From a virus (taxonomy: Duplodnaviria > Heunggongvirae > Uroviricota > Caudoviricetes): DNA of 64,000 nucleotides. Position numbers and translations under genes: made by a program. Below, piece after piece: positions 23,642 through 54,682 of the stretch. The stretch covers positions 35,109 to 99,108 of IMG/VR virus record IMGVR_UViG_3300029474_000225; one strand, 5' to 3'. The notes under the pieces were generated by a model. It was given only the letters and a program-made list of their open reading frames with translations. It ran no database searches and was not told the origin of the DNA. The first letter of the stretch is position 1; each line of letters starts with the position of its first letter.

Positions 23642-24160
23642 ATGAAATGGAATGAAGTTCCGAAATTTACAGAATATGAATTAGTAAATCCAACATGTTT
23701 TGGTTTTATTTCTTATGTTGATTTTATTGAGAATGAAATAAAAGAATATAATCTAAATATGAACCCTGATTTTCAGAGAGGGCATGTTTGGACAGAGATT
23801 CAGCAAAGTAAATATGTTGAGTTTATTTTAAAAGGTGGAAAATCTGGAAGAGATTTTTATTTTAACTGGAATCCTGATACAAATGACTATGTTTGTGTCG
23901 ATGGGTTGCAAAGAACTATGGCTCTTCAAAATTTTGTACATAATAAGTTAAAAGCATTTGGACAATTTTTTGATGAGTTCAGTTTTACAAAATATATTGC
24001 TGCTTATAATCCATTACCGGAATATCGCATTAATGTATATCGAAATAATCTGAAGACTAAAAGAGAAATTCTTCAATGGTATGTTGATATGAATGCAGGT
24101 GGCACACCACATACAAATGAAGAGATTGAACGAATCAAGAAGATGATAGAAAATTTATAA
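23642..24160 (+). CDS. DUF262 (ParB-like nuclease superfamily, GmrSD N-terminal-type) domain protein, short stand-alone form
   Basis: Motifs PDFQRGHVW and VCVDGLQRTMAL (the DGQQR signature). SD AAGAGGT. Confidence 0.65.
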   Translation: MKWNEVPKFTEYELVNPTCFGFISYVDFIENEIKEYNLNMNPDFQRGHVWTEIQQSKYVEFILKGGKSGRDFYFNWNPDTNDYVCVDGLQRTMALQNFVHNKLKAFGQFFDEFSFTKYIAAYNPLPEYRINVYRNNLKTKREILQWYVDMNAGGTPHTNEEIERIKKMIENL

Positions 24161-24184
24161 AGCTAAATATAGAAATAAGCAATA

Positions 24185-24214
24185 GAAGCAGAAACCAACT
24201 GCTTCTTTTATTTT
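24185..24214 (+). terminator. rho-independent terminator (GAAGCAG-N7-CTGCTTC + TTTTATTTT)
   Basis: Hairpin followed by a T-run immediately after gene 23642-24160. Confidence 0.7.
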
Positions 24215-24305
24215 CCATAGAAATATGGTAAAATAAAAACAATTATAAACCATAACATGAGATGTGCTGTTTTACGGAAATAATTATAACAAGGGGGTTC
24301 AAAAT

Positions 24306-24692
24306 ATGAATTACAATGAAAAGAAAGATCTTCTTAAAAGAGTAAAAGAAGGCGCAGAAAAGAAAGAATTCTGTGTAAACAACATTGAAGAATGGGGATT
24401 CATTTGTGGCGCATGGGTGGAACATGTTTTAAAGAACAGTGAATTACCAGATAGAATCTACAAAGGTAGAGAAACATGGATGATGAAAGAGCTTAATGGT
24501 GATAATATAGAACCTTTTAAGAAAAAATTGATGGAAACTTTCACAAAACAGTACATGGAAAATGTAGGAGAAACTGAATTCTTGAATGGTGTTTATCTTG
24601 CAATTATCAGCTATGATATTGAAGATGGAGAAAAATGGTCAGATGCATCTGAGATGTTTTCTGCTGGATTGGTTTCGGAAGTAAATTGGTAA
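24306..24692 (+). CDS. hypothetical protein
   Basis: SD AAGGGGG upstream of the ATG at 24306. Confidence 0.55.
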   Translation: MNYNEKKDLLKRVKEGAEKKEFCVNNIEEWGFICGAWVEHVLKNSELPDRIYKGRETWMMKELNGDNIEPFKKKLMETFTKQYMENVGETEFLNGVYLAIISYDIEDGEKWSDASEMFSAGLVSEVNW

Positions 24693-24722
24693 TTGAAATA
24701 TAAATTTAATATTATAGTAAAC

Positions 24723-24757
24723 AAAGCAACTAGATTAAGGTCTGGTTGCTTTTTTAT
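24723..24757 (+). terminator. rho-independent terminator (AAAGCAAC-N14-GTTGCTTT + TTTTATT)
   Basis: Hairpin followed by a T-run. It lies inside the track's extended N-terminus of ORF 24693, which supports the later start at 24780. Confidence 0.55.
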
Positions 24758-24779
24758 TACAGAAAAAGAGGTGATAAAA

Positions 24780-25046
24780 ATGAATATGGGAAATCCAAAA
24801 AGAGCATCAAGATTCTTATGTCTTCATTGTATGAAAATCAACCAGTTAGGAAGTGGGATTCAAAGAAATGGAAATCAACGTAAGAAAAAACATATTAAAG
24901 ATCTAACATGTTTTAATGAAGGTTGCAACGGAGAAATTACAAAGAATGTAGAAATTCGCTGGTGTGACGATTATCTGGAAATGTTTGATTATGCTCAACG
25001 AATTAGATCACGTTATTATACGGATAAAGTAGAGAATAATATGTAG
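24780..25046 (+). CDS. Cys-rich zinc-finger-like protein (CLHC...C..GCNGE...WCDDY)
   Basis: SD AAGAGGTGA upstream of the ATG at 24780. Confidence 0.55.
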   Translation: MNMGNPKRASRFLCLHCMKINQLGSGIQRNGNQRKKKHIKDLTCFNEGCNGEITKNVEIRWCDDYLEMFDYAQRIRSRYYTDKVENNM

Positions 25047-25062
25047 AAAGGTGGAACATAAT

Positions 25063-25332
25063 ATGGAAAATTATAAAATCGGTTATAATGGTGATGCTTA
25101 TGTTGAAAATATTCACCATATGGGTGTTGAGTATAATGGAAATTATTATAGTGTGATTTTCGGAGAATATGTAAATGGAGGATTCTTTAGTATTCCAAAC
25201 TGGAATTGCGGTGGTGAGTTAGCTGATTTTAGTGATGTTTTTTGGAATACAGAATCTATTCAGAAATCATTGAAAAGTAAAAGAGCAGCTAAAGCTATTG
25301 CAAAAGTGATAGCGGATTACACAAGGGAGTGA
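25063..25332 (+). CDS. hypothetical protein
   Basis: SD AAAGGTGG upstream. Confidence 0.55.
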   Translation: MENYKIGYNGDAYVENIHHMGVEYNGNYYSVIFGEYVNGGFFSIPNWNCGGELADFSDVFWNTESIQKSLKSKRAAKAIAKVIADYTRE

Positions 25333-25337
25333 TAATT

Positions 25338-26318
25338 ATGTGTTATAAGATAGAAGTTCAAAATAAAAATGCTGAAAAGCTTAATAGGAAGTTGGATGAG
25401 TTAAATCTTCCTATATATATGAGAAAATATTTCACTGTTAAAATAGAGAGTAAGGCAGGTGCATTGAATTATCTTGGAGCTATTGTAGATTTGCTCAATT
25501 GGTTTATTAAAGAGAAACTTATTGATAAAACAAATATTTCAGATATTGAGCCATCGGATTTTACCGATATTATGGCAGAGGATATTACATTATATTTGAA
25601 AACTAAAGAACAGAATGGTATGTCACCAACTACATTGGAAACCAGAAAACATATGATAAGTAGCTTTTGGGATTATATGAGTAGAGTAAATGGAACTGAA
25701 ATTAAAGAGAAATTCTTCAAAGATGTAACATATAAAGGAATTCCATCTGGAAACAATTTAACTAAAAAACTTCCAACAGAAAAACAGCTTAATGATATGG
25801 AAGAAAAAATAATGTGGAAAAAGGATATTCCTGTAAGAAATAGAAATATTGCTATCTTTCGTGTATTAAGAGGAACTGGAATAAGAGAATCTGAACTTGC
25901 TGGCTTGGATTTATCTGATTTACATTTGGACGAAGAAATGCCATATATTACAATTCTTGGAAAAGGCGTGTACAGAGAAATGCAAAATAGAACGGTATAT
26001 CTTAGCGGATCTGCTTTAAAAGCATTAAGTGAATGGTTAGAATACAGAAGCACCTTAGATAATATTGTAGATACGGAAGCTGTATTTATCAATAAGAATG
26101 GCACACGCACAACAGAGAGAAATATCAAACAGATATTTGAAAATTATGGAAATGGTATTACTCCACATATGATGCGACATTATTATGCCAGTATAATGAA
26201 CAGTAATGGAAATCTTGCGTTCGTGCAGCAACAGTTGGGGCATAGTAGTGTAAATACAACGATTAATAATTATGCAAATGGATCAGTCGGAATGAAAAAA
26301 ATATTGGAGAATATGTAA
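25338..26318 (+). CDS. int: tyrosine-type site-specific recombinase / phage integrase
   Basis: C-terminal catalytic signature RGTGIRESELAGL...ILGKGVYREM...HMMRHYYAS...LGHSSVNTTINNYANG, giving the R...K...HxxR...Y residues. Confidence 0.8.
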   Translation: MCYKIEVQNKNAEKLNRKLDELNLPIYMRKYFTVKIESKAGALNYLGAIVDLLNWFIKEKLIDKTNISDIEPSDFTDIMAEDITLYLKTKEQNGMSPTTLETRKHMISSFWDYMSRVNGTEIKEKFFKDVTYKGIPSGNNLTKKLPTEKQLNDMEEKIMWKKDIPVRNRNIAIFRVLRGTGIRESELAGLDLSDLHLDEEMPYITILGKGVYREMQNRTVYLSGSALKALSEWLEYRSTLDNIVDTEAVFINKNGTRTTERNIKQIFENYGNGITPHMMRHYYASIMNSNGNLAFVQQQLGHSSVNTTINNYANGSVGMKKILENM

Positions 26319-26513
26319 ATGGTTAAATATATTGGAAAGAAGACTAGAAACGAAAAGAAAATAACAGTAAGAGGACTTGCAGAATTAGCAGTTGTTGCAC
26401 CAAGCACGATCAGCAAATGGGAAAACGGAAGTGCAGTTCCAGATCTGGCAGTATTAGAACTTGTAGCAAATGCGATGGAAGTTAAACCATTTGATCTTGT
26501 AGAGTTTGTGTAA
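26319..26513 (+). CDS. XRE-family HTH transcriptional regulator
   Basis: ITVRGLAELAVVAPSTISKWENGSAVPDLAVLELVANAM. The start abuts the integrase stop. Confidence 0.7.
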   Translation: MVKYIGKKTRNEKKITVRGLAELAVVAPSTISKWENGSAVPDLAVLELVANAMEVKPFDLVEFV

Positions 26514-26526
26514 TATGTAAACGACA

Positions 26527-26697
26527 CTAAGAAATAGTGTCGTCAAACTTATTAACTTCATTTGTTACGAGGTTACGAATCCAACCAGATAACGAGCGTC
26601 CATCCGCTGTTGCAATTCTGGCTGCCTTTTCTTTTATATCTTTAGAAAGAAGCACCATAACCCTTGTGTTTTCATCCTTGATTTTTCCTTGTGGCAT
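26527..26697 (-). CDS. ribbon-helix-helix (CopG/Arc/MetJ-like) DNA-binding protein, 56 aa
   Basis: Reverse-strand ORF absent from the track. The protein MPQGKIKDENTRVMVLLSKDIKEKAARIATADGRSLSGWIRNLVTNEVNKFDDTIS has an RHH signature. SD GGAGAT 7 nt upstream. Confidence 0.6.
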   Translation of the reverse strand: MPQGKIKDENTRVMVLLSKDIKEKAARIATADGRSLSGWIRNLVTNEVNKFDDTIS

Positions 26698-26727
26698 AGT
26701 AAATATCTCCTTTATTAATATAAGTTG

Positions 26728-26756
26728 ATTATAAGTTGTTGCAAACTATATGTCAA
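26728..26756 (-). promoter_or_regulatory. perfect-consensus sigma-A promoter (TTGACA-17-TATAAT) for RHH gene, overlapping two direct TATAAGTTG repeats
   Basis: Reverse complement reads TTGACATATAGTTTGCAACAACTTATAAT. Confidence 0.55.
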
Positions 26757-26783
26757 TTATTTTAAAAAACTGACATAAACCCA

Positions 26784-26812
26784 TTGACAAGTTGATGACA
26801 ACTTGCTATAAT
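26784..26812 (+). promoter_or_regulatory. perfect-consensus sigma-A promoter (TTGACA-17-TATAAT) with palindrome CAAGTTG-ATGA-CAACTTG (26788-26805) in spacer, driving toxin-like gene
   Basis: Hexamers and the palindrome were read directly. The AAGTTG half-site is shared with the RHH promoter region. Confidence 0.6.
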
Positions 26813-26869
26813 GCGAAGTATCAAAGGTAATCCACAAGTACATAAACACAAAAGAGAGGAGGAGTACAT

Positions 26870-27250
26870 ATGGATTTACAGAGATACGACATAATAAAGG
26901 CAAAAATTAATTATGAAGGAAATTCAGTACAAGCGAATGAAAGACCTTATGTAATAGTAAGTAATCCATTGGGTACGAAATATGCTCCGATTATAACAGT
27001 GATGCCTTTGACAAGTAAGATTAAAAAGACAAACATGCCTTGTCATGGATGTATTCAAGCAAACGAAAATAATGGATTAACATTATATTCTATGGCGTTA
27101 GGTGAGCAGATCACAACAATCTCAAAAGATGAAGTGATCTCAAAAATTGGAACTATTACTGATGATAAAAATAAAAGAATGGTAGATAAAGTATGCTTTA
27201 ATTCTTTATTTTTTGGAACAGACTACAAGCTTGAGGAGGTAATGGCATAA
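26870..27250 (+). CDS. MazF/PemK/Kid-family endoribonuclease toxin homolog
   Basis: RYDIIKAKI...ERPYVIVSN...IITVMPLTSKIKK...HGCIQANENNGLTLYSMALGEQITTISKDEV..KIGTIT matches the PemK fold consensus. SD GAGAGGAGGAG. Confidence 0.65.
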   Translation: MDLQRYDIIKAKINYEGNSVQANERPYVIVSNPLGTKYAPIITVMPLTSKIKKTNMPCHGCIQANENNGLTLYSMALGEQITTISKDEVISKIGTITDDKNKRMVDKVCFNSLFFGTDYKLEEVMA

Positions 27251-27501
27251 TGTATGTAGATAAAGAAATAGCAAAAAAAATGATTGATGAAACACCTGGT
27301 AAAATATGGGTTGATTCCTTCAACGGTATGACTTTTATCCATACAAGACCAAGACAGATAACTGTTGATGAAGGAAAGCGAATAATAAATAGGGCAAACA
27401 CAATTAATTATCAAGATAATGACTTTTTTGGGTTGCTTTCGCTGGATGGAGTGCAGGAATTTATTGTGCATAATATTAAGTTTCCCCAAATAGTGTCCTG
27501 A
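27250..27501 (+). CDS. hypothetical protein translationally coupled to toxin-like gene (candidate antitoxin in reversed order)
   Basis: Its ATG overlaps the upstream stop (TAATG). 83 aa, with no recognised fold. Confidence 0.5.
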   Translation: MYVDKEIAKKMIDETPGKIWVDSFNGMTFIHTRPRQITVDEGKRIINRANTINYQDNDFFGLLSLDGVQEFIVHNIKFPQIVS

Positions 27502-27829
27502 TTATAGGACTTGAAGTATTATATAATAAAAATATTAAACGAACAAATATCGAACGAATGTTCTGGAAATGCGTTGACAAGAACAAATGTTTGGAGTATT
27601 ATAATTTTCGTAAATAATAAAAAAGATAGAGTCAAGCGATTCAAACGCTGCGCCAACAGCTTTCTACTTGACTCTATCAAACCAAATACATACAACAGCA
27701 TTAAGCCATTGCAGAAGCGAAATATCGCTTGAATTTATTTTACATATATTTCGAAAGAAAGTCAAGCTTCAAGCGTTTTCTGCAATTAAAATTCCTAAGT
27801 TACACAATTAAATATGGAAATAATATTAT

Positions 27830-27901
27830 AGGGCATTCGCCAAGCGGTAAGGCATCGCACTTTGACTGCGAAATTTGTCAGTTCGAATCTGATATGCCCT
27901 G
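27830..27901 (+). tRNA. tRNA-Gln (anticodon TTG), no encoded CCA
   Basis: Manual cloverleaf: acceptor AGGGCAT/ATGCCCT, D-arm GCC..GGC, anticodon stem TCGCA/TGCGA with loop CTTTGAC, T-arm GTCAG-TTCGAAT-CTGAT. Confidence 0.7.
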
Positions 27902-28065
27902 CTATGCGATACTTCCAGACCGGGTTCTATCGCAGAACGCAAGAATTAATCATTGTAAGAGCAAAATGTGTAGTTGCTATAGTTCTACCATAGCCTGATC
28001 CACTAACGGATTACAAGCTGATACTATAGAACTTCCTGATAAACTTGCGATAGTGTCAGCGACTT

Positions 28066-28139
28066 GGATCATTAGCACAATTGGTTAGTGCATTCGGCTC
28101 ATAACCGGACGGTTCAGAGTTCAAGTCTCTGATGATCCA
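28066..28139 (+). tRNA. tRNA with CAT anticodon (Met, fMet or Ile2), no encoded CCA
   Basis: Manual cloverleaf: acceptor GGATCAT/ATGATCC, D-arm GCAC..GTGC, anticodon stem TTCGG/CCGGA with loop CTCATAA, T-arm CAGAG-TTCAAGT-CTCTG. Confidence 0.7.
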
Positions 28140-28164
28140 TTGCTAAATCAAACAAAGAGAGGAG

Positions 28165-28782
28165 ATGATTACGTTGGCACAATATGTAATTACAGATGGT
28201 TCTCGTTGGATTATGAGAAATCGTAATGGTAAATATGTTCCAACATCTTGCGAGGCATTGGCTGATACATTTTCAAATAAAGCAGCCAATAATCTATATA
28301 ATAACTCGCTACCCAAAGCCTTGAAATCAGTATTTCATATCCAGAAAATTGATACCCCACCCGATAATGTAAAGCAGATTACACAATCAGAAGTGGAAAA
28401 TAATACCGAAAAAGTTATGGTTGCTGAAAATATCCAGAAATGGATTGACAAAATAACTGATCTTAATGGATTAGCAACAGATGCATTACATAGAAAAGAA
28501 GAATTGTGTGAAGAACTTAGCTTTGTAGACAGGGAATTATCCGATATCAATCATTATATAGAATTTTGCAATCTTAATGCAGCACAAGGATGGAAAGCAT
28601 ATAAGATGATAAAGGAACGGAGGATAAAAAGAAGAAGTATCAAAAATGAGATACAAATTCTTAACATTATTCTTGATAAAAAGATTTCTGATACAGTTAC
28701 AAATGAGATTTTGGAATCCATGTCGAAAATGGATAAGCGTACATATGAACCACGAGTAATGAACGAGCTGTTTGATTTGTAA
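28165..28782 (+). CDS. hypothetical protein (205 aa)
   Basis: SD GAGAGGAG upstream. The start may instead be the TTG at 28174. Confidence 0.55.
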   Translation: MITLAQYVITDGSRWIMRNRNGKYVPTSCEALADTFSNKAANNLYNNSLPKALKSVFHIQKIDTPPDNVKQITQSEVENNTEKVMVAENIQKWIDKITDLNGLATDALHRKEELCEELSFVDRELSDINHYIEFCNLNAAQGWKAYKMIKERRIKRRSIKNEIQILNIILDKKISDTVTNEILESMSKMDKRTYEPRVMNELFDL

Positions 28783-28797
28783 AGAAAGGATATACAT

Positions 28798-28980
28798 ATG
28801 GTGATTTGTAAAAGGTGTTATACGTCTATGGTTGTTGTTATGTCGTTTTCAAAGGACAAGCATGAGAAATTCTGTCGTTGTCCGAAGTGTTGTTCAGAGA
28901 CACGACATATAAAAATCAATGATAATGAGTTGAGTTTTGGAGAATATTTGTATAGAGAGTTAGACAGAAAAAGGAAATGA
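28798..28980 (+). CDS. zinc-ribbon protein (CKRC...CRCPKCC)
   Basis: 60 aa with two Cys pairs. SD AAAGGA upstream. Confidence 0.5.
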   Translation: MVICKRCYTSMVVVMSFSKDKHEKFCRCPKCCSETRHIKINDNELSFGEYLYRELDRKRK

Positions 28981-28990
28981 AGTAAGGCAG

Positions 28991-31198
28991 GTGCATGAAG
29001 TGAAAGACGAAATATTGCGTGAAAAATTAAATAATCTTTCATCACAACAGTTGGAATGGATTAATGAATACTGTGTAAATGATATGTCAAAATTGAAGAA
29101 AATTAGTTACAATGCATTTTTCAGGTATGGGATTCCAGCACATGAACATGACGAATTGTACGATGATGCAATGAATGTTCTGATGGAAAGTGTTATCAAC
29201 TTTGATTCATCTCAAGGTGCGAGTTTTAAAACTTACCTTATTAATAATATTAAAAAATCTGTTATTGACTGGTATAGAGACAACTATCAGAGATGTAAAA
29301 GAAAAAATCTATTAACTGATAAAAATGGAAAGATAGTAAAGGTTGATAAAAATGGAAATGTAACAGATGACGATAAAGGAAAACCAGTTATTATTCCAGA
29401 TACTTCATTTGATGCACCTACTGAAGAAGATAATGATTTAGTAGAAAAAATTGCATCTGACTTTAACGTAGAAGACAAGAGTGAGTTCGATTTTAGTGCC
29501 GATGAAAAAGTTGATAATTTTATTGATTCTTTGCCGAGGATACAAAAAAATATTTTGCTGATGCGGATGGAGAATGTTCCTGCTGATAATATAAAACAAA
29601 AATTGAATATATCAGACAGAGAATATAGTAGTGCTATGAAGTCAATTAAGATAAATAAAGGACTTTCAGTATTTTCAAAGAATAAAAATGATGGGAATTA
29701 TGATGTGGAGGTAAATAATATGGAAGACAGAATTATTGAAATTAGCGAATCTGAAAATTACAGGACGGACAAGTATAGCATGTATTCGTTGTTACAGGAT
29801 AAGAAAAATGGAGACGTGAACTGCAACTACATCTTGCAACGTGAACCTTTTCAGTGGACTACAGAAGAAGCGAATAGATATTTTTGTCGTATTCTTAGTA
29901 ATCTTCCTATTCCAGAAATTATTCTTTGTGAACAGAAGAAAAAGGGATTGACAATCTCTCATTTAATTGACGGATTGCAGAGACTTTCATATGCTGAGGC
30001 ATTCAAGGAAAATCGTATTAAGATTGGTTCAGCAGGAGCAGAGAGACATTTAATTCAGTATAGAGATTATGTCTTAGATGATAATGGAAATCGTGTACTT
30101 GATGAAGATGGCTTACCAGAATATGAGATGAAAATATTTGATGTTATAGGGAAATATTATAAAGATCTTCCTGATGAGTTAAAGAAACGATTCAATAATT
30201 TCAATATAAACGTAACAAAATTCTTTGATTGTACAGATGAGCAGATTGCAGATCATATTCGTGATTATAACAATCATGCGAGTATGAATAAGGAACAGGG
30301 TGGTTTTCTTAATGTATCTGCACAGACAGCGGGATATATTAAAAATATTTCACAGAAAAACACATTCTTTAAAAATTGTGGGAAGTTTACAGATAATAAT
30401 GTTATTAAGGGAAAGTTGGAACGTGTTGTTGCAGAATCAATAATGTTAATGTTCTTCCGTGATTCATGGAAAGCAAAACTTGATACAATTTACAAATATG
30501 TTGATGAAAATGCAACAGAACAGCAGTTCTTAAAACTTAATTCACATTTTAATAGATTGGAATTAGCATTAGGCGATGACAATAAAGACTTGAAGTCATT
30601 ACTTACTCCAACTACAATGCCAATGTGGATTGCAGTATTTGATAAATTTACTACATATAATATTGAAGATTCAAGATTCATTGATTTCTTAAGAGCATAT
30701 AATACAGAACTTAAAGATAAAGAAGTTGATGGTGTATCTATGGCAGATTTTAAAGACCAACAGACAAAGAAAAAGGCAACTATTACAGGTAAAATTGATT
30801 TACTTATAAAACTGATGAATGAATTTTTACATATTGGTACAAGAGAAGTAAATAACACAGAATTGGAGAATAACAATACGAAAGAAAGTGCTGAAGAAAA
30901 TACGGAAGAAAGTGTTCTTTCTTTTGTTCAAGAAAATGCAAATCCAAATGTGACGGACGAAGATATAAACCTTTACACAGACATGGTGGAAGATTGTGTG
31001 AAGATTGATGATCCAGTTTATAAGGAATGCGGAACTGCATTAGTAGCACTCATGGCATATGCTTGCCAAAATGATAAGGATCAAGACTTTGAAAAATGGA
31101 TTGAAAACTATAGAAATAAATCTGAATTTAGTCCATCACAGAAAGTTAATTATACATATATGAAACGCAGCTTTGATAATTTCGTAGCAAATGCGTAA
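28991..31198 (+). CDS. sigma-70 family (regions 2 and 4) domain fused to DUF262/ParB-like (DGxQR) domain protein, 735 aa
   Basis: N-terminus matches sigma region 2: HDELYDDAMNVLMESVINFDSSQGASFKTYLINNIKKSVIDWYRD. Region 4 HTH: LPRIQKNILLMRMENVPADNIKQKLNISDREYSSAMKSI. DUF262 motifs: QREPFQW ... LIDGLQRL. GTG start. Confidence 0.7.
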   Translation: MHEVKDEILREKLNNLSSQQLEWINEYCVNDMSKLKKISYNAFFRYGIPAHEHDELYDDAMNVLMESVINFDSSQGASFKTYLINNIKKSVIDWYRDNYQRCKRKNLLTDKNGKIVKVDKNGNVTDDDKGKPVIIPDTSFDAPTEEDNDLVEKIASDFNVEDKSEFDFSADEKVDNFIDSLPRIQKNILLMRMENVPADNIKQKLNISDREYSSAMKSIKINKGLSVFSKNKNDGNYDVEVNNMEDRIIEISESENYRTDKYSMYSLLQDKKNGDVNCNYILQREPFQWTTEEANRYFCRILSNLPIPEIILCEQKKKGLTISHLIDGLQRLSYAEAFKENRIKIGSAGAERHLIQYRDYVLDDNGNRVLDEDGLPEYEMKIFDVIGKYYKDLPDELKKRFNNFNINVTKFFDCTDEQIADHIRDYNNHASMNKEQGGFLNVSAQTAGYIKNISQKNTFFKNCGKFTDNNVIKGKLERVVAESIMLMFFRDSWKAKLDTIYKYVDENATEQQFLKLNSHFNRLELALGDDNKDLKSLLTPTTMPMWIAVFDKFTTYNIEDSRFIDFLRAYNTELKDKEVDGVSMADFKDQQTKKKATITGKIDLLIKLMNEFLHIGTREVNNTELENNNTKESAEENTEESVLSFVQENANPNVTDEDINLYTDMVEDCVKIDDPVYKECGTALVALMAYACQNDKDQDFEKWIENYRNKSEFSPSQKVNYTYMKRSFDNFVANA

Positions 31199-37073: not shown

Positions 37074-37188
37074 TTGTTGCAAATATACCATATATAGTAT
37101 TGGAAATAAGTAATATATACTATATATGGTATATATTTTACATTAGAATGAAACGCACATTTCTTGCGGAATTTTGGAGGTTAAGACA

Positions 37189-38217
37189 ATGACAATTGAA
37201 CAGATTAAGGACAAATTAAAATCAAAAGAGTATGACTTCCTGAGAACAGATAAGAATTTGGGTAACAATATCATTATCTTAACTCTTGGTGGAAGTCATG
37301 CATATGGAATGGATAAAGAAGGATCTGATTTAGATGTGAGAGGTATTGCACTCAACAGCAAATCAGATATTTTACTTGGAACAGACTTTGAACAGGTCGT
37401 AGATGTTGATACAGATACAACTATGTATTCGTTTAATAAAATGATACAGCTTTTAGCATCAAGTAATCCTAATACAATTGAACAACTTGGCTGTTTACCT
37501 GAGCATTATTTACATTTATCTAAAATTGGTAAAGAATTATTAGACAATAGAAAAATGTTTCTTTCGCAGATTTGTGTTCACACCTTTGGAGGATATGCGG
37601 GTTCTCAGCTCAGACGTATGGAAAACAAGGCTGCAAGATTGGTTGGTCAGGCAGAAAATGAAGCCTACATTTTAAAAAGCATCAATAATGCAAGATATGA
37701 ATTTAAAAACAGATATTATCCTCATGAAAATAGTGATGTGAAACTATATATTGATAAGGCTGTTCAAGAAGGATATGATAGTGAGATTTTTATGGATGTA
37801 AACTTGCAACATTATCCGTTAAGAGATTGGGCTGGCATGTGGAACGAAATGAAGTCCATTGTTAGTAGTTACAGTAAATTTGGTAAAAGAAATGAAAAGG
37901 CTGTAGCCCATGATAAATTAGGAAAGCATATGGCTCATTTGATTCGATTATATATGATGGGTATTGATATTCTGGAAAAGGAAGAGATTATCACTTATAG
38001 ATCAGACGAACACGATTTACTTATGAGTATTAGAAATGGAGAATATTTAGATGAAAATAGACAACCTATTTCTGCGTTCTATGATTTATTGAATGAATAT
38101 GAAAAACGTTTTGAATACGCAAAAGAAAATACATCTTTGCCTGATAAACCTGATTATAAGAAAATCAATGAATTTAAGATGCATGTAAATGAGAGAATTG
38201 TGAAAGGAGATATCTGA
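37189..38217 (+). CDS. nucleotidyltransferase (pol-beta superfamily) domain protein
   Basis: NTase signature IIILTLGGSHAYGMDKEGSDLDVRG, matching the GS-x9-13-DxD motif. SD GGAGGTTAAG upstream. Confidence 0.6.
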   Translation: MTIEQIKDKLKSKEYDFLRTDKNLGNNIIILTLGGSHAYGMDKEGSDLDVRGIALNSKSDILLGTDFEQVVDVDTDTTMYSFNKMIQLLASSNPNTIEQLGCLPEHYLHLSKIGKELLDNRKMFLSQICVHTFGGYAGSQLRRMENKAARLVGQAENEAYILKSINNARYEFKNRYYPHENSDVKLYIDKAVQEGYDSEIFMDVNLQHYPLRDWAGMWNEMKSIVSSYSKFGKRNEKAVAHDKLGKHMAHLIRLYMMGIDILEKEEIITYRSDEHDLLMSIRNGEYLDENRQPISAFYDLLNEYEKRFEYAKENTSLPDKPDYKKINEFKMHVNERIVKGDI

Positions 38218-39179
38218 TGGAAATATCAAATAGAGCGAAAGAAAGATTCTGTAAGGATTGCAATATACCAATTAGATTATTCCAAGAGCCATACTTTTTA
38301 GATAGAATTAAGCTTTTTGATGAGTTCTATGGAACTGTTGACAAGTGGATTAGATTTGCAAGCGAATTACAGGGGTATAATTGTGAGCAGGATTATTTTG
38401 AAGAATATAATCATGTAAAGGATGCAGCTATTACAAGTATCAAAGAGTCAGAGGCATATCAGAGATTTAATGCGGAAAATATGAACAAATTCACTGTGAT
38501 TCATAAAAATTTATCTAATAAAGATATATTTAAGCCAACTAATACTGGAAGAGTTTTTATCAGTATTGATATGAGAAAGGCTAATTTTTCATCTTTACAC
38601 GAATATGATAAAAATATATTTCTTGGAACTGATACATGGGAAGATTTTATTTCTCAATTCACAGATAACGAACATATTATAAATAGTAAATATATTCGTC
38701 AGGTAATTTTGGGTAATTGCAATCCCAAAAGACACATCACATATGAAAAGTACCTTATGGATCAGACATTATCGTTATTATATGACATCATTGGTGAAGA
38801 GAGAATTGTATTCTTTTCAAATGATGAGATTGTTTATGATATGACAACAGTAAGTAATTTGCACATGTTAAATCTTGTGAGAAATTGTGTTGAAGAAAGA
38901 TTAAGTACAAAATCTAATATCCCATTCAGAGTTGAATTATTTTCGCTCCACAAAATCAATGGTACTGACGGATACTGTAAAAAAATCTACAAAGAAAATG
39001 GAGAATATAGTATTGAGTTCAAATGTTTAGACAACTATATGATGCCATTCGTACTTAGATATTTCTTGGGAGAAGAAATTACTGAAAGTGACAAGGTATT
39101 CTACCATGAAGGACTATTGGCAAAGTTTATTGATGAACCGAAAATTGAGGTGAATTTTGATGAAAAGATTGAAAATTGA
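38217..39179 (+). CDS. hypothetical protein coupled to NTase gene
   Basis: ATGA start/stop overlap with the upstream gene. 320 aa. Confidence 0.6.
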   Translation: MEISNRAKERFCKDCNIPIRLFQEPYFLDRIKLFDEFYGTVDKWIRFASELQGYNCEQDYFEEYNHVKDAAITSIKESEAYQRFNAENMNKFTVIHKNLSNKDIFKPTNTGRVFISIDMRKANFSSLHEYDKNIFLGTDTWEDFISQFTDNEHIINSKYIRQVILGNCNPKRHITYEKYLMDQTLSLLYDIIGEERIVFFSNDEIVYDMTTVSNLHMLNLVRNCVEERLSTKSNIPFRVELFSLHKINGTDGYCKKIYKENGEYSIEFKCLDNYMMPFVLRYFLGEEITESDKVFYHEGLLAKFIDEPKIEVNFDEKIEN

Positions 39180-40533
39180 AATTCCATCTGGTGCAAATGA
39201 AATTATTCATACTTTACAGAATAATGGATATGAAGCTTTCCTGGTAGGAGGATGCGTGAGAGATAGTATTCTTGGCAGATCAATTCACGATTATGACATT
39301 ACAACTTCTGCCACGCCAGATGAAATGATAGAAGTATTCAAGGACAAGAGAATTATTGAAACTGGTTTGCAACATGGAACTATTACCATTGTAATTGACG
39401 GTGAGGGATATGAATGTACCACTTACAGAATTGACGGTAATTACTCAGATAGCCGTAGACCTGATAGCGTAACATTTACACGAAGTCTTAAAGAAGATCT
39501 AAAGCGTAGAGATTTTACAATCAATGCGATGGCATACAATGATGAAATTGGTCTTATAGATCCGTTTAATGGTATGGAAGATATTGAGCATTATAAAATC
39601 AGATGTGTTGGTAGAGCAGAGGATAGATTTTCAGAAGATGCTTTAAGGATTTTACGTGCTATTCGGTTTGCTTCACAATTGGGATTTGTAGTTGACTCTG
39701 ATGTAAGTTTGAACATTCATAAAATGTATAAGAATTTAGAGAATATATCTATTGAGAGAATCAACAGTGAGTTTTGTAAGATTGCATTATCAAGCGAGTT
39801 TTATATACAGATAGGATTATTCCGTGAAGTATTCTCGTTGTTCATTCCTGAAATTAAAGATATGTTTGGCTTTCAACAGAATAATCCATATCACATCTAT
39901 GATGTATGGAATCATACAGTACATGCAGTACAAGCTTATGAATGTGATTGTGAACCAGACTTGAATCCAAGAGATTTGATTACATCATTGGCTGTATTTT
40001 TTCATGATATTGGAAAGCCACATTGTTATCAAGATGTCGAGGATGGCATTAGACATTTCAAAGGTCATGGAAGAGTCAGTGCTGATATGACTGATGAAAT
40101 AATGAAGCGATTAAGATTTGATAATGACACAAGAGAAAAGGTTGTTGAATTAGTTTATTATCATGATGCTACTTTTGAGGTTGGAAAGAAATATGTCAAG
40201 AGATGGCTTAATAAAATTGGAGAAGAACAATTTAGAAGATTATTAAATATTCGTAGAGCCGATATTAAAGCACAAGCAGGCATGAATCAGGAAACAAGAT
40301 TACAGAAGATTGATAACATCGAATATATTTTAGAAGAAGTCTTACAGGATGATGAATGTTTTTCTCTAAAGGATTTAGCAGTTAATGGTAAGGAGTTAAT
40401 TACTATTGGATATAAGCCAGGAAAAGAAATTGGTGAGGTATTAAATAATCTGTTGGATTCAGTCATTAGTGGAGAATATATAAATGAGAAAGAAAAATTA
40501 TTAGAAATAGCAGAGAGGAGATTACATGGTTAA
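39160..40533 (+). CDS. CCA-adding enzyme (tRNA nucleotidyltransferase) with HD domain
   Basis: PolyA-polymerase head domain GGCVRDSILGRSIHDYDITT...RRDFTINAMAY, plus HD motif FFHDIGK. Confidence 0.8.
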   Translation: MKRLKIEIPSGANEIIHTLQNNGYEAFLVGGCVRDSILGRSIHDYDITTSATPDEMIEVFKDKRIIETGLQHGTITIVIDGEGYECTTYRIDGNYSDSRRPDSVTFTRSLKEDLKRRDFTINAMAYNDEIGLIDPFNGMEDIEHYKIRCVGRAEDRFSEDALRILRAIRFASQLGFVVDSDVSLNIHKMYKNLENISIERINSEFCKIALSSEFYIQIGLFREVFSLFIPEIKDMFGFQQNNPYHIYDVWNHTVHAVQAYECDCEPDLNPRDLITSLAVFFHDIGKPHCYQDVEDGIRHFKGHGRVSADMTDEIMKRLRFDNDTREKVVELVYYHDATFEVGKKYVKRWLNKIGEEQFRRLLNIRRADIKAQAGMNQETRLQKIDNIEYILEEVLQDDECFSLKDLAVNGKELITIGYKPGKEIGEVLNNLLDSVISGEYINEKEKLLEIAERRLHG

Positions 40534-41452
40534 ATTATTTTCACATACGGATCTTGATGGAATCGGTTGTGGTATTTTGGCAAAACTTGTATTTGGTAAA
40601 GATAATGTAGAAATTTCATATTGTGATTACGACAATATTGATTCAACTGTAAAGGAATATTTAGAAACAGAACAGGACGACACAATCCCAATTTATATTA
40701 CCGATATTCGTGTCAATGAAGAAACTGCTGAGTTGCTGAATAAAAGAGGCAATGTTCAGTTATTAGATCATCACCCAACAGCTCTTGGATTAAATAAGTA
40801 TGATTGGTGTGATGTAGTTATCGAAGATTCTAAAGGAATTAAAACATCGGGAACTATGTTGTTTTATCATTGGTTAGGTATGAATGGTTGCCTGAGTGAA
40901 GAGTTAGAGAATAATAATGCGTTAAAGAGATTTGCTGAATTAGTGAGAGATTACGACACTTGGAGATGGTCAGAACTTGGTGAAGATGGTGTTATTTGCA
41001 AGCAGGTGAACGATTTACTTTATCTGTATGGTCGAGATGATTTTATTCATTGGTGTATTTCAGAGATACGTGGTGAAATATTCCCATTGTTATCTGCTAA
41101 AGATGAGGTTGTTCTGAAGATTAAGCAGGATGAAATTGATAGATATATTGAGGAGAAGAATGAAACCATGTTTACCAGTCCTATGTGTGGTAAGGTTTGT
41201 GGTTTTGTATTTGCAGATAGGTTTGTTAGCGAATTAGGTAATAGACTTTGTAAAATGCATCCTGAAATTGATTTTGTGGCAATGATTGATATTGATGGTT
41301 GTACGGTATCTTATAGAACCGTTAAAGAAGATATTGATCTTGGTAAAGATGTAGCAAATTTATTTGGTGGTGGTGGTCATCCAAAAGCTGCTGGTTCAGA
41401 ATTTGGTCAGAGTATTAAGTTGAAAATTATTGGGGAAATCTTTGGACAGTGA
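40526..41452 (+). CDS. DHH-family phosphoesterase (NrnA-like oligoribonuclease/pAp phosphatase type)
   Basis: DHH motif SHTDLDGIGCG...LDHH and DHHA1 motif GGGHPKAAG. Confidence 0.75.
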   Translation: MVKLFSHTDLDGIGCGILAKLVFGKDNVEISYCDYDNIDSTVKEYLETEQDDTIPIYITDIRVNEETAELLNKRGNVQLLDHHPTALGLNKYDWCDVVIEDSKGIKTSGTMLFYHWLGMNGCLSEELENNNALKRFAELVRDYDTWRWSELGEDGVICKQVNDLLYLYGRDDFIHWCISEIRGEIFPLLSAKDEVVLKIKQDEIDRYIEEKNETMFTSPMCGKVCGFVFADRFVSELGNRLCKMHPEIDFVAMIDIDGCTVSYRTVKEDIDLGKDVANLFGGGGHPKAAGSEFGQSIKLKIIGEIFGQ

Positions 41453-52479: not shown

Positions 52480-53799
52480 ATGTATTGTGCTTATATCACA
52501 ACATTAAAAGGATTAAGAAAACATAGTAACGCTGATAGATTACAGTGTGTAGAAGTATTTGGACAGAATGTAATTGTAGATTTGAGTTATCAGGAAGGAC
52601 AGAAAGTAGTCTTCTTTCCATCTGACGGTCAGTTATCACTTGAATATGCAACAGATAATAACCTTGTCAGAAAGAAAGACGAGAATGGAAACAACATTGG
52701 TGGTTATATGGATGCTGAGAAGAGAAATGTAACCGCTATTAGACTTAGAGGTGAGAAGTCAGAAGGACTTGTATTACCTGTTGAGACGCTTTCTAAGTAT
52801 ACAGATATTTCAAAATTAAAAGATGGCGATCAGATTACAGTTCTTGGTGGTCATGAGATTTGTCAGAAATATATTCCAAGAGGAAAGAATCGTTCAAGAG
52901 GTAATGGAAATAGTTCAAATAAGAAGAACAAGTTTCAGAAAGAAACAGTATCATATCCATTTTTTGAGGAGCATAAAGATACAGCACAGCTTGCATATAA
53001 TATGTCAGCATTTAAGCCAGGAGATACAATTTATATTACTCGTAAGCTCCACGGAACATCAGCTCGTACTATGAAGACTGTTAAGATTACAAAAAAGAAT
53101 AATAAGCTGAGAAAATTCTTACATATGCAGCCAAAGGTTACAAGAGAAGTTTCTGTTGTATCTGGTAGTAGAAGAGTTGTATTAAAGGATATGACAAAGA
53201 ATGATGGATATTATTCTGATAATGGATTTAGAAAAAAGTACCACGATTTATTAAAAGACAAGCTTCCTGAAGGTGCTGAAATTTTCTATGAAATTGTCGG
53301 ATATGTAAATGAAACAACACCAATTATGGGTTCAGTATCTAATAAGGGAGTTAAAGAAAAAGAATTTACAAAGAAATTTGGCGACACTACAACATTCTCA
53401 TATGGTTGTGAGCCAGGCGAAAATGAGATGTATGTGTATCGAATGACAATGACAACAGCAGACGGAACAGTTGTTGAAGTGCCTTGGGAAACTGTAGAGG
53501 TATGGTGTGACAAGTTAGGTGTTAAGCATGTACCTGATTTAGAGAAGTTTATTTTTACTACACCAGAAGATTTGAAAAAAAGAGTAAATAAATATCTTGA
53601 TGGTATGCCAGCAGATGAAATTGGCAAGACACATATTGCTGAAGGTGTGGTTGTTCGTATTGATAACAGAGCGACATTTACAGCTTATAAGGATAAAGTA
53701 TTTGAATTTAAGGTAATAGAATCGATCATTAAAGATACGTCTGATGTGCCAGATATGGAAGAAGCAGAGGAAGTTTTAGAGGAGACTTTAAATGAATAA
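52480..53799 (+). CDS. ATP-dependent RNA ligase (Rnl-type, KxHG nucleotidyltransferase motif)
   Basis: Motif I ITRKLHGTSA, with flanking conserved blocks EIFYEIVGY and VPWETVEVWC. SD TAAGAGGAA upstream. Confidence 0.6.
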   Translation: MYCAYITTLKGLRKHSNADRLQCVEVFGQNVIVDLSYQEGQKVVFFPSDGQLSLEYATDNNLVRKKDENGNNIGGYMDAEKRNVTAIRLRGEKSEGLVLPVETLSKYTDISKLKDGDQITVLGGHEICQKYIPRGKNRSRGNGNSSNKKNKFQKETVSYPFFEEHKDTAQLAYNMSAFKPGDTIYITRKLHGTSARTMKTVKITKKNNKLRKFLHMQPKVTREVSVVSGSRRVVLKDMTKNDGYYSDNGFRKKYHDLLKDKLPEGAEIFYEIVGYVNETTPIMGSVSNKGVKEKEFTKKFGDTTTFSYGCEPGENEMYVYRMTMTTADGTVVEVPWETVEVWCDKLGVKHVPDLEKFIFTTPEDLKKRVNKYLDGMPADEIGKTHIAEGVVVRIDNRATFTAYKDKVFEFKVIESIIKDTSDVPDMEEAEEVLEETLNE

Positions 53800-54682
53800 A
53801 CCTACACTATGGATCATGTGTGGTCTGTCTGGTAGTGGCAAATCAACCATTGCCACTCAGATTGCCAATGAGAACCCAAATACAATAATTGTATCATCAG
53901 ATGCAATTCGTGAAGAATTGACAGGTAATTACGAAGACCAAGAACATAATGAAGAAGCGTTTAAGATTTTTCATGATAGAATACGCAAGAATTTAGAGAA
54001 TAAAAAGAATGTAATTGCAGATGCAACTAATCTGACTATGAAATCTCGCAGAGCAATTATGATGAAAGTGAATGGGTTAAATATCAAAAAAGTGTGTGTA
54101 ATTATACCAAAACCATTTGAGCAGTGCAAAGAAGATAATTTACATAGAGAACATCCTGTACCTGGGTTTGTATTAGAGAAGCAGATTAGAAAATATCAGA
54201 TTCCATTCAAGGAAGAGGGATTTGATGAAATTATTATTCATAAATTTCATAATGCTAATGCAATGACCATAGGTAAATTGATTGCTAAAATGAAAGATTT
54301 TGACCAGAAGAATCCTCATCATACTATGACTTTAGAAAATCATTGCTTTAATACATATGATTTATTTATAGAAAAAGGATATAAAGCTGAATACAACATG
54401 GGAGCAGTTCTTCATGATTATGGCAAACTATATTGCCAGATAATTGATGAAAATGGTATAGCTCATTATTATGACCACCCATCTGTTGGATGCTATTTGG
54501 TTTTAGAGAATTTAATAGAAAAGTTTAATAAGGTTGTCTTAGACACATGTTTCCTTATCAATTACCATATGATGCCTTTTAATTGGGATACTGATAAAGC
54601 AAAGCAGCGATGGAAAGAAAGATTTGGAGAATATAAATATAAGATGCTTTTAGATTTTAATAAATGCGATAGAGCGAGGTAA
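53792..54682 (+). CDS. polynucleotide kinase-like P-loop kinase fused to HD-domain phosphohydrolase
   Basis: Walker A GLSGSGKST, then HD-domain motifs LHDYGK and HPSVG. It overlaps the RNA ligase gene by 8 nt. Confidence 0.65.
   Translation: MNKPTLWIMCGLSGSGKSTIATQIANENPNTIIVSSDAIREELTGNYEDQEHNEEAFKIFHDRIRKNLENKKNVIADATNLTMKSRRAIMMKVNGLNIKKVCVIIPKPFEQCKEDNLHREHPVPGFVLEKQIRKYQIPFKEEGFDEIIIHKFHNANAMTIGKLIAKMKDFDQKNPHHTMTLENHCFNTYDLFIEKGYKAEYNMGAVLHDYGKLYCQIIDENGIAHYYDHPSVGCYLVLENLIEKFNKVVLDTCFLINYHMMPFNWDTDKAKQRWKERFGEYKYKMLLDFNKCDRAR

Follow-up and report, generated by a model that had tools for sequence, protein, structure and literature searches.

MazF is among the best-studied bacterial toxins, and to our knowledge no MazF has been characterised that lacks a MazE-type antitoxin encoded upstream of it. 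Canonical mazEF is autoregulated via the antitoxin or the toxin-antitoxin (TA) complex. In three-component TA systems, DNA binding and neutralisation reside in separate polypeptides (PMC3141249), and in a further group of systems, comprising higBA, hicAB, mqsRA and rnlAB, the toxin gene comes first and is coupled to a partner gene directly downstream. Here we describe a mazF/PemK-family gene, the 83-amino-acid (aa) open reading frame (ORF) that follows it, which we call X, and a divergently transcribed ribbon-helix-helix (RHH) gene, all in a 64,000-nucleotide (nt) stretch of a Caudoviricetes virus (positions 35,109 to 99,108 of IMG/VR record IMGVR_UViG_3300029474_000225), referred to as the window; all coordinates are window positions. 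From comparison with related loci we read these genes, with about even confidence, as a reverse-order, three-component TA-like cassette of temperate Lachnospiraceae phages in which X would act as the neutraliser.

The locus shares with mazEF and pemIK (kis-kid) the toxin family (PF02452), the catalytic Arg and Thr, the format of a small module on a mobile element, and palindromic operators at the promoter. It differs from canonical mazEF in that mazF is the first same-strand ORF after the promoter, so there is no upstream MazE or PemI, and in that its DNA-binding protein is divergently encoded, freely exchanged among relatives and left without room for a toxin-binding tail. The conserved partner instead lies downstream, and is unrelated to either the AbrB-type or the RHH-type MazE. 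Whereas mazEF is regulated by its own antitoxin, the operators here match the type of the separate regulator and not X. A literature search returned no paper on the X partner family or on this architecture.

In its presumed working the module comes closest to three-component systems. Among these, the omega-epsilon-zeta system of pSM19035 and the paaR-paaA-parE system of E. coli O157 prophages likewise have a regulator separate from the presumed neutraliser, and paaR is also prophage-borne. Omega, likewise an RHH protein of small size, is a repressor that recognises short repeats, both direct and inverted. Both systems form a single operon in the order regulator, antitoxin, toxin, whereas here the regulator is divergent, with a promoter of its own that matches the sigma-70 consensus at 12/12 positions, and the toxin precedes X; their toxins are zeta and ParE rather than MazF, and the partner family differs too. 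The antitoxins of higBA, hicAB and mqsRA carry their own helix-turn-helix (HTH) domain and autoregulate (RnlB is an exception), whereas X has no DNA-binding domain detectable by profile searches and regulation falls to a separate gene.

The anatomy of the locus bears out what a sequence-only reading of this DNA had described, namely a non-canonical organisation around a MazF/PemK toxin with the upstream gene divergent and no antitoxin gene upstream on the same strand. The mazF-like gene was said to stand under a TTGACA-17-TATAAT promoter whose spacer holds the palindrome CAAGTTG-ATGA-CAACTTG, and both are present (26784-26812 and 26788-26805, respectively; Table 1). The opposite-strand gene was said to have its own perfect promoter over two direct repeats, located here at 26728-26756, and AAGTTG half-sites were said to be common to both promoters. 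These two promoters, placed back to back (26728-26812), are the only 12/12 sigma-70 matches in the 64 kb when both strands and spacers of 16-18 nt are considered; four 11/12 matches occur elsewhere in the window. AAGTTG occurs four times within 84 bp over both promoters (0.08 expected per 120 bp), the densest cluster among the window's 45 copies on both strands, with a half-site spacing of 10 bp in the inverted pair, over the spacer, and 11 bp in the direct pair, over the -10. The palindrome and the TATAAGTTG repeat pair, a putative autoregulatory operator of the RHH gene, are each unique in the window even with two mismatches tolerated. As also described earlier, the 83-aa ORF (27250-27501) overlaps the toxin stop codon, sharing 1 nt with it (TAATG).

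The product of the toxin gene is recognised by Pfam PF02452 (PemK_toxin; E=1.1e-16, 61.5 bits against a cutoff of 23.1), in keeping with the earlier assignment to MazF/PemK, and by phrog_1936, 'MazF-like growth inhibitor' (E=1.7e-19). The protein can also be aligned to the solved structures of S. aureus MazF (4mzm; E=1.1e-11) and of B. subtilis EndoA (4mdx; E=4.8e-10), with ERPYVIV opposite VRPVLVI and PLTSK opposite AITAQ, which indicates that the catalytic Arg25 and Thr48 (B. subtilis numbering) are kept; an EQ-x-T-I-x-K segment also lines up with the S. aureus and B. subtilis proteins. Among 21 relatives at 33-80% identity, T48 is invariant and R25 is conserved in at least 90%. A C-terminal extension of about 18 aa is specific to the family. 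The protein is likely to be an active RNase.

X lies immediately downstream of the PemK gene, overlapping or abutting its stop codon, in every complete locus examined, including those where X is down to 27-40% identity. The Shine-Dalgarno sequence of X sits within the last mazF codons, 10 nt before the X start. The two proteins also diverge together: MazF/X identities to the window pair are 100/100, 99/90, 98/95, 68/69, 65/66, 59/58, 54/40 and 39/38. The neighbouring integrase does not track them, being 41-93% identical beside MazF proteins of 99-100% identity, and the regulator is likewise decoupled. We found no locus with an intact MazF of this clade and X wholly absent; at least an N-terminal piece of X was always present. 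On this evidence X is very probably a functionally coupled partner of MazF. Linkage, coupling and co-divergence in these comparative data are also the basis for regarding X as an antitoxin, and that it neutralises MazF seems to us about an even proposition.

No match to X was found in Pfam, PHROG, NCBIfam, PADLOC or PDB sequences, nor by tblastn in 50,697 GenBank phage records. The family is narrow, with 103 clusters at ≥58% identity, and a profile search with X over 1.84 billion representatives recovered only 53 clusters (50% identity). Structure prediction of the 83-aa protein, a check proposed with the sequence-only reading, gave a confident globular model (AF2; pLDDT 95.6, pTM 0.85) from a 46-sequence alignment, and by this model X is a real, folded protein. 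The predicted alpha/beta fold consists of helix 5-13, strands 19-25 and 35-37, helix 39-48 and a three-stranded sheet spanning 51-79, and the protein presents a strongly conserved, exposed YQDNDFFG hairpin. An alignment of 17 sequences had given a pLDDT of 48, and the notion that X is intrinsically disordered was rejected on the 46-sequence model. Foldseek of the model against PDB gave nothing below E=0.08, and its BFVD matches were uncharacterised phage proteins only.

Several proposed likenesses of X were examined and set aside. PDB profile matches to protein A were repeat artefacts, with no stretch significant alone. YeeU acts on cytoskeletal targets and not by binding its toxin; resemblance of X to the CbeA/YeeU/YfjZ family (PF06154; 2inw, 2ea9) was rejected, with 4-5% identity over the 57/83 residues that align, nothing significant from Foldseek and no Pfam match. 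In Lactobacillus phage Satyr and in Enterocloster phage CB473P1, the gene that follows the MazF-like gene is no relative of X. A 92-aa ORF of MT835469 (hhalign E=1.2e-4, probability 55%) could be a distantly related X.

Phage proteins that inhibit MazF have been described: AimX and YosL, of phi3T and SPbeta, bind and inactivate a Bacillota MazF and influence the lysis-lysogeny decision (PMC10769878), which indicates that phages evolve MazF inhibitors other than MazE. Compared by description, AimX and YosL mimic the MazE C-terminal helix and target the host MazF, whereas X is globular and encoded together with the phage's own MazF; a PDB sequence search with X gave no match to MazE.

The divergent gene had been called an RHH gene on sequence alone, and this assignment is weak for the window protein itself (RHH_5 E=1.3e-3, below the Pfam cutoff; PHROG Arc-like repressor E=9.5e-4; hhalign probabilities of only 36% against Arc and 10% against CopG) but is carried by the family, in which 13/15 members match RHH_5, the best at E=2.9e-8. 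All 56 homologue clusters encode proteins of 43-63 aa, nearly all of them 56-57 aa. The RHH fold takes up about 47 of the 56 residues and leaves about nine after the second helix. In all six RHH-homologue contexts sampled, the gene is divergent from a PemK gene.

Comparison of relative loci (designated here by L-numbers, with P-numbers for proteins from relatives) showed that this regulator slot holds at least four unrelated regulators across the family (Table 1). At L009, MazF differs from the window protein by 1 residue (99%) and X is 89% identical, beside a 68-aa Cro/C1 HTH regulator unrelated to the RHH protein. Between the L009 regulator and mazF the DNA shows no relation as far as the -10 hexamer, and from there on it is identical to the RHH-type loci L036-L040; the promoter is once more a perfect TTGACA-17-TATAAT, here carrying CAATAT(A)TGCT repeats in place of AAGTTG sites. 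On its sequence, L009 is a recent regulator swap beside a constant toxin. Had the regulator been the cognate antitoxin, an unrelated protein could not have taken its place beside an unchanged toxin, which argues that the RHH protein is a repressor and not an antitoxin. The L009 regulator also ends in 'DDT', encoded by a comparable hairpin at the same place. In the window, the right arm of the terminator-like hairpin at 26521-26543 codes for the 'DDT' at the RHH C-terminus; because a hairpin arm encodes it, the shared tail reflects a DNA-level constraint and is not a toxin-binding motif.

The half-sites CAAGTTG/CAACTTG are unchanged in lineages whose RHH proteins are only about 57% identical (L041, by tblastn; L051 and L059 are similarly diverged), while the central 4 nt of the palindrome vary (ATGA, ATAT, CTGT, CTGA) and its flanks have drifted apart. 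L036-L041, L051 and L059 also keep the TATAAGTTG repeat that lies over the RHH promoter. HTH-type loci have perfect or near-perfect promoters with other repeats at the same positions, showing that regulator type co-varies with repeat type. That the AAGTTG sites serve as operators for RHH is very probable. A protein bound at these sites would occupy the spacer of the mazF-X promoter and cover the -10 and start site of the RHH promoter, and would so repress both; from this layout we think it highly probable that RHH does so. In terms of sequence, the regulator gene, its operators and both promoters are an exchangeable, plug-in cassette that recombines at the -10 hexamer.

The operon leader also carries conserved signals. 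In most lineages, irrespective of the type of regulator they carry, a box, TATCAAAGG, begins exactly 6 nt downstream of the -10, and it is probably the 5' end of the mRNA. Downstream of it are copies of UACAUA, and U^ACAUA is the strict cut site reported for B. subtilis MazF, shared by the L. monocytogenes and S. aureus enzymes (bioRxiv 10.64898/2026.08.06.743204); earlier literature gives UACAU. TACATA keeps the same position across loci L001-L059. Across 31 distinct 86-nt leaders from about ten lineages we counted 53 copies of TACATA (0.07 expected in each). The hexamer was present in 30/31 operon leaders, many of which, the window's included, have a second copy over the mazF start codon, and was absent from all 31 mazF and X coding regions (637 nt; 0.55 expected in each). 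Control leaders contained it in 3/70 cases. The shorter TACAT occurred in 18/20 distinct 60-nt leaders, 25-37 nt before the ATG, and was repeated at -5 in about two-thirds; other gene leaders of the window had it in 7/70 cases. The bases on either side of the hexamer differ freely between leaders. Folding of the window leader gave z=-3.45, and among 15 diverse leaders no consensus pairs were found, which places the conservation at the sequence level. We infer that the leader is designed for cleavage by a MazF with this specificity, be it the phage enzyme or that of the host; that these sites mediate MazF-dependent feedback is a more tentative suggestion, which we hold at somewhat less than even confidence. 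An RNA antitoxin of type III (ToxIN-like) was considered and rejected, there being no repeat array and no Rfam family in 26300-28400 except two tRNAs.

These observations suggest the following scheme. RHH, probably as dimers, would bind the AAGTTG half-sites and shut off its own and the mazF-X promoter; in relatives the RHH unit is replaced by Cro/C1-type HTH regulators with repeats of their own. When expressed, the operon would make a catalytically intact MazF first, followed by translationally coupled X, which would bind and neutralise MazF, so that DNA binding and neutralisation would be divided between two proteins. Whenever MazF was free and active, be it the phage's or the host's, it would cleave the leader at UACAUA and end MazF translation. 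Cleavage that separates the ribosome-binding site from the ATG would block MazF, and X could still be made from its own ribosome-binding site 380 nt downstream. Such cleavage would solve the stoichiometry problem of a toxin-first operon. The biological role may be prophage-borne defence, abortive infection or stabilisation.

The sequence-only reading had also offered an antitoxin downstream in reversed order, and this is the alternative that the comparative data favour: X is obligately linked to MazF, coupled to it and co-diverging with it, though a few natural metagenomic variants with a truncated X call for caution. At L036 (4267-4449) only X residues 1-56 remain, with a deletion running to a zinc-ribbon gene and RHH intact, and in P0093 residues 1-56 are joined to tRNA-Gln. 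L064 (526-774) retains residues 1-44, on a contig with 1.8x coverage, and L065 (583-795) and L066, from two samples, retain residues 1-34 followed by a MurJ-like gene. All of these keep a full-length MazF with its catalytic residues. Two points limit the leader argument: the motif statistics overstate independence, the 31 operons being related and falling into about 10 lineages, and the phage MazF is only about 35% identical to enzymes of known UACAUA specificity, so its own specificity may differ. The truncated forms are compatible with an N-terminal part of X being sufficient, with repression alone silencing MazF, or with dead remnants and assembly artefacts, and because of them our confidence in X as the neutraliser is held near one half.

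Other irregular forms were seen at these loci. The L065 contig (ERZ27232350:k141_163495), which carries X cut after residue 34, opens with an Illumina TruSeq adapter (contig positions 1-34), and L066 starts at the base right after that adapter. One contig (P0218) has an in-frame MazF(1-104)-X fusion, which arose by deletion between similar 'SKEE.K..ID' stretches in the MazF C-terminal helix and the X N-terminal helix. Clusters of truncated MazF (P0217 and others) were rejected as pseudogenes: three of the four places shown begin at a contig end and are artefacts, and the fourth, L045, begins 142 nt inside its contig. The contigs of L045-L048 start inside mazF, and several independent assemblies break within or just upstream of the gene, which is consistent with assembly-graph branching at a variable regulator cassette in mixed phage populations. 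Decayed prophage remnants with a truncated MazF were found at L058, L059 and L060.

The truncated-X variants, with MazF, promoter and regulator apparently intact, speak for a scheme in which MazF has no protein antitoxin and is held by the repressor and leader cleavage, with X serving as a specificity or targeting subunit, a sensor or an RNA protector. X has no convincing resemblance to any antitoxin, its stable-looking globular domain with a conserved exposed hairpin would suit such roles, and control is tight and dual at the DNA level and plausible at the RNA level. A consensus promoter is hard to silence fully, however, and free MazF is normally toxic at low levels; strict translational coupling with roughly 1:1 co-expression is what a neutraliser requires, and no intact MazF of the clade was found with X entirely absent. 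We regard this scheme as unlikely, though it is the best placed of the alternatives.

Less probable still is an early lytic device for host takeover in place of a TA or defence module expressed in the lysogen. The consensus promoter would be active on infection, while no repressor is yet present, and a pulse of MazF would degrade host mRNA until the repressor, and perhaps X as well, shuts the cassette down. PHROG places phage MazF-like proteins under host takeover, the phage has RNA-repair genes and tRNAs, back-to-back strong promoters with an autorepressor would be expected to give pulse kinetics, and L035 pairs an ImmR-like HTH with an ImmA-type Peptidase_M78, a damage-inducible switch of mobile elements. 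Against it, the window does not avoid UACAUA (55 observed on the coding strand, 44 expected), and UACAU is not depleted across it either (119 on the coding strand), so that a nuclease of this specificity would also cut phage transcripts; the lack of avoidance points to a MazF normally held in check rather than freely used in lytic growth. The cassette also stands beside an integrase or prophage end, a typical place of lysogen-expressed morons, and the module persists in decayed prophage remnants.

That the divergent RHH protein is an antitoxin in trans as well as the repressor, with X an unrelated passenger, was the other arrangement offered by the sequence-only reading; although RHH domains are common as antitoxin DNA-binding modules (B. 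subtilis MazE, ParD, RelB), RHH adjoins a family PemK gene in 6/6 contexts sampled and several alternative regulators end in short acidic tails, it is contradicted, and hardly credible, given the unrelated HTH beside a 99% MazF at L009, the four or more unrelated regulators in the slot, the roughly nine residues left for a toxin-binding tail, the hairpin origin of 'DDT' and the co-divergence of MazF with X and not with the regulator.

Table 1. Features of the cassette and its surroundings in the window, and regulator types at the comparative loci.
Feature	Position or loci	Strand or orientation	Remarks
Terminator-like hairpin ACGACACTA-agaaa-TAGTGTCGT	26521-26543		between convergent HTH_3 gene and RHH gene; read from sequence
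RHH (CopG/Arc-type) repressor gene	26527-26697	-	56 aa; RHH_5, Arc-like PHROG
Direct repeats TATAAGTTG, 2 copies 11 bp apart	26719-26727, 26730-26738		straddle -10 of RHH promoter and overlap its probable start site
RHH promoter	TTGACA 26756-26751, 17-nt spacer, TATAAT 26733-26728	-	12/12; promoter scan
mazF-X operon promoter	TTGACA 26784-26789, 17-nt spacer, TATAAT 26807-26812	+	12/12, TG-extended; promoter scan
Palindromic putative operator CAAGTTG-ATGA-CAACTTG	26788-26805		fills + strand promoter spacer
Operon leader	26819-26869	+	box TATCAAAGG, two UACAUA, Shine-Dalgarno
Box TATCAAAGG	26819-26827	+	6 nt after -10
UACAUA no. 1	26839-26844	+	upstream of Shine-Dalgarno
Shine-Dalgarno GGAGG of mazF	26858-26862	+	leader
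UACAUA no. 2	26865-26870	+	its last A is the A of the mazF ATG
mazF/PemK-family endoribonuclease gene	26870-27250	+	126 aa; Pfam PemK_toxin
Shine-Dalgarno of X, GAGGAGG	27233-27239	+	inside last mazF codons, 10 nt upstream of X start
X, MazF partner	27250-27501	+	83-aa uncharacterised family; directly downstream of mazF
Short hairpin GTCCT-gattat-AGGAC	27495-27510	+	overlaps X stop codon; centroid structure
tRNA-Gln(UUG)	27830-27902		downstream of cassette
tRNA-Met(CAU)	28065-28140		downstream of cassette
Regulator: RHH	window group, L036-L041, L051, L059	divergent	comparative loci
Regulator: Cro/C1 HTH_26, mutually unrelated	L017, L027, L029, L032, L042, L056	divergent	comparative loci
Regulator: weak HTH	L023	divergent	comparative loci
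Regulator: ImmR-like HTH, then Peptidase_M78 (ImmA-like) gene	L035	divergent	comparative loci

Phages carrying the cassette are about 150 kb in size, as judged from 22 IMG/VR loci, whose contigs reach 157 kb (83-157 kb for the larger of them). Related MazF-X modules were found in genomes of Lachnospiraceae and other Clostridia, among them the cultured carriers Lachnospiraceae bacterium A4 (792-kb scaffold), Acetatifactor muris DSM 23669 and Acetivibrio ethanolgignens, and on this basis the phages are temperate and their hosts gut Lachnospiraceae. These hosts were located by scanning genome contigs with MazF patterns; a scan with X patterns returned none. The cassette adjoins a tyrosine integrase or a prophage edge. 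The MazF-X clade is abundantly represented in gut metagenomes from humans and animals: the assembly collection indexes a single RHH variant in 1,934 blocks. A megablast of 24000-30000 against GenBank phages and PLSDB plasmids gave no match.

Genes in the window lie almost all on the + strand. The 64-aa HTH_3 gene (26319-26513) begins right after the integrase stop codon, and occurs only in relatives whose integrase is at least 70% identical to the window's, being absent from RHH-type loci with an integrase of about 41% identity; integrase and HTH_3 look like another exchangeable unit. At the other end of the cassette, the short hairpin over the X stop codon is not significant against shuffles, and relatives keep a stem there despite base changes; it is a possible weak end of the operon. 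The roughly 330 nt between X and tRNA-Gln (27511-27829) are conserved, with an 11/12 promoter (27574-27602) flanked by GAAC-N4-GTTC-type palindromes, and the conserved blocks include two more TACATA (27687, 27741). No Rfam match was found in this interval, which may be a leader or noncoding RNA of the tRNA transcript with its own operator.

Further along, genes for RNA repair and tRNA maintenance were found at 37174-41452 and 52480-54682, encoding a nucleotidyltransferase, a CCA-adding enzyme, a DHH phosphoesterase, an RNA ligase and a polynucleotide kinase. RNA cut by a MazF-type enzyme has 5'-OH and 2',3'-cyclic phosphate ends, and RNA-repair enzymes can heal such ends. A 735-aa protein (28991-31198) combines a Sigma70 region 2 segment with GmrSD_N (DUF262) and resembles PADLOC NsnA (E=2.9e-11); in relatives the two parts are separate genes. 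The gene content also includes a DNA methyltransferase. In the window sequence GGCC, GGACC/GGTCC, AGTACT and CAGCTG are wholly absent and GATC, ACGT and CTAG strongly depleted, a pattern that likely reflects restriction-site avoidance.

The phage context, the exchangeable regulator cassette and the conserved UACAUA leader sites are new beyond the sequence-only reading, and they show a MazF clade that is wired differently, with a new partner family, a plug-in repressor and a MazF cut site placed where cutting would uncouple synthesis of the toxin from that of its partner. The most far-reaching form of this proposal, in which X founds a new class of MazF neutralisers (globular, lacking a DNA-binding domain and encoded behind the toxin), an exchangeable divergent repressor sets transcription, leader cleavage at UACAUA cuts off synthesis of MazF and not of X, and the module both limits itself and 'listens' to the host MazF, is doubtful at present. 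The presence of the module in cultured strains makes it directly testable. If X is a neutraliser, it would represent a new antitoxin fold, and the module would give a handle on the part played by RNases of gut Lachnospiraceae prophages in defence, stabilisation and life-cycle decisions; 'listening' to the host enzyme, if true, would tie the module to MazF-dependent control of lysis and lysogeny, as in phi3T.

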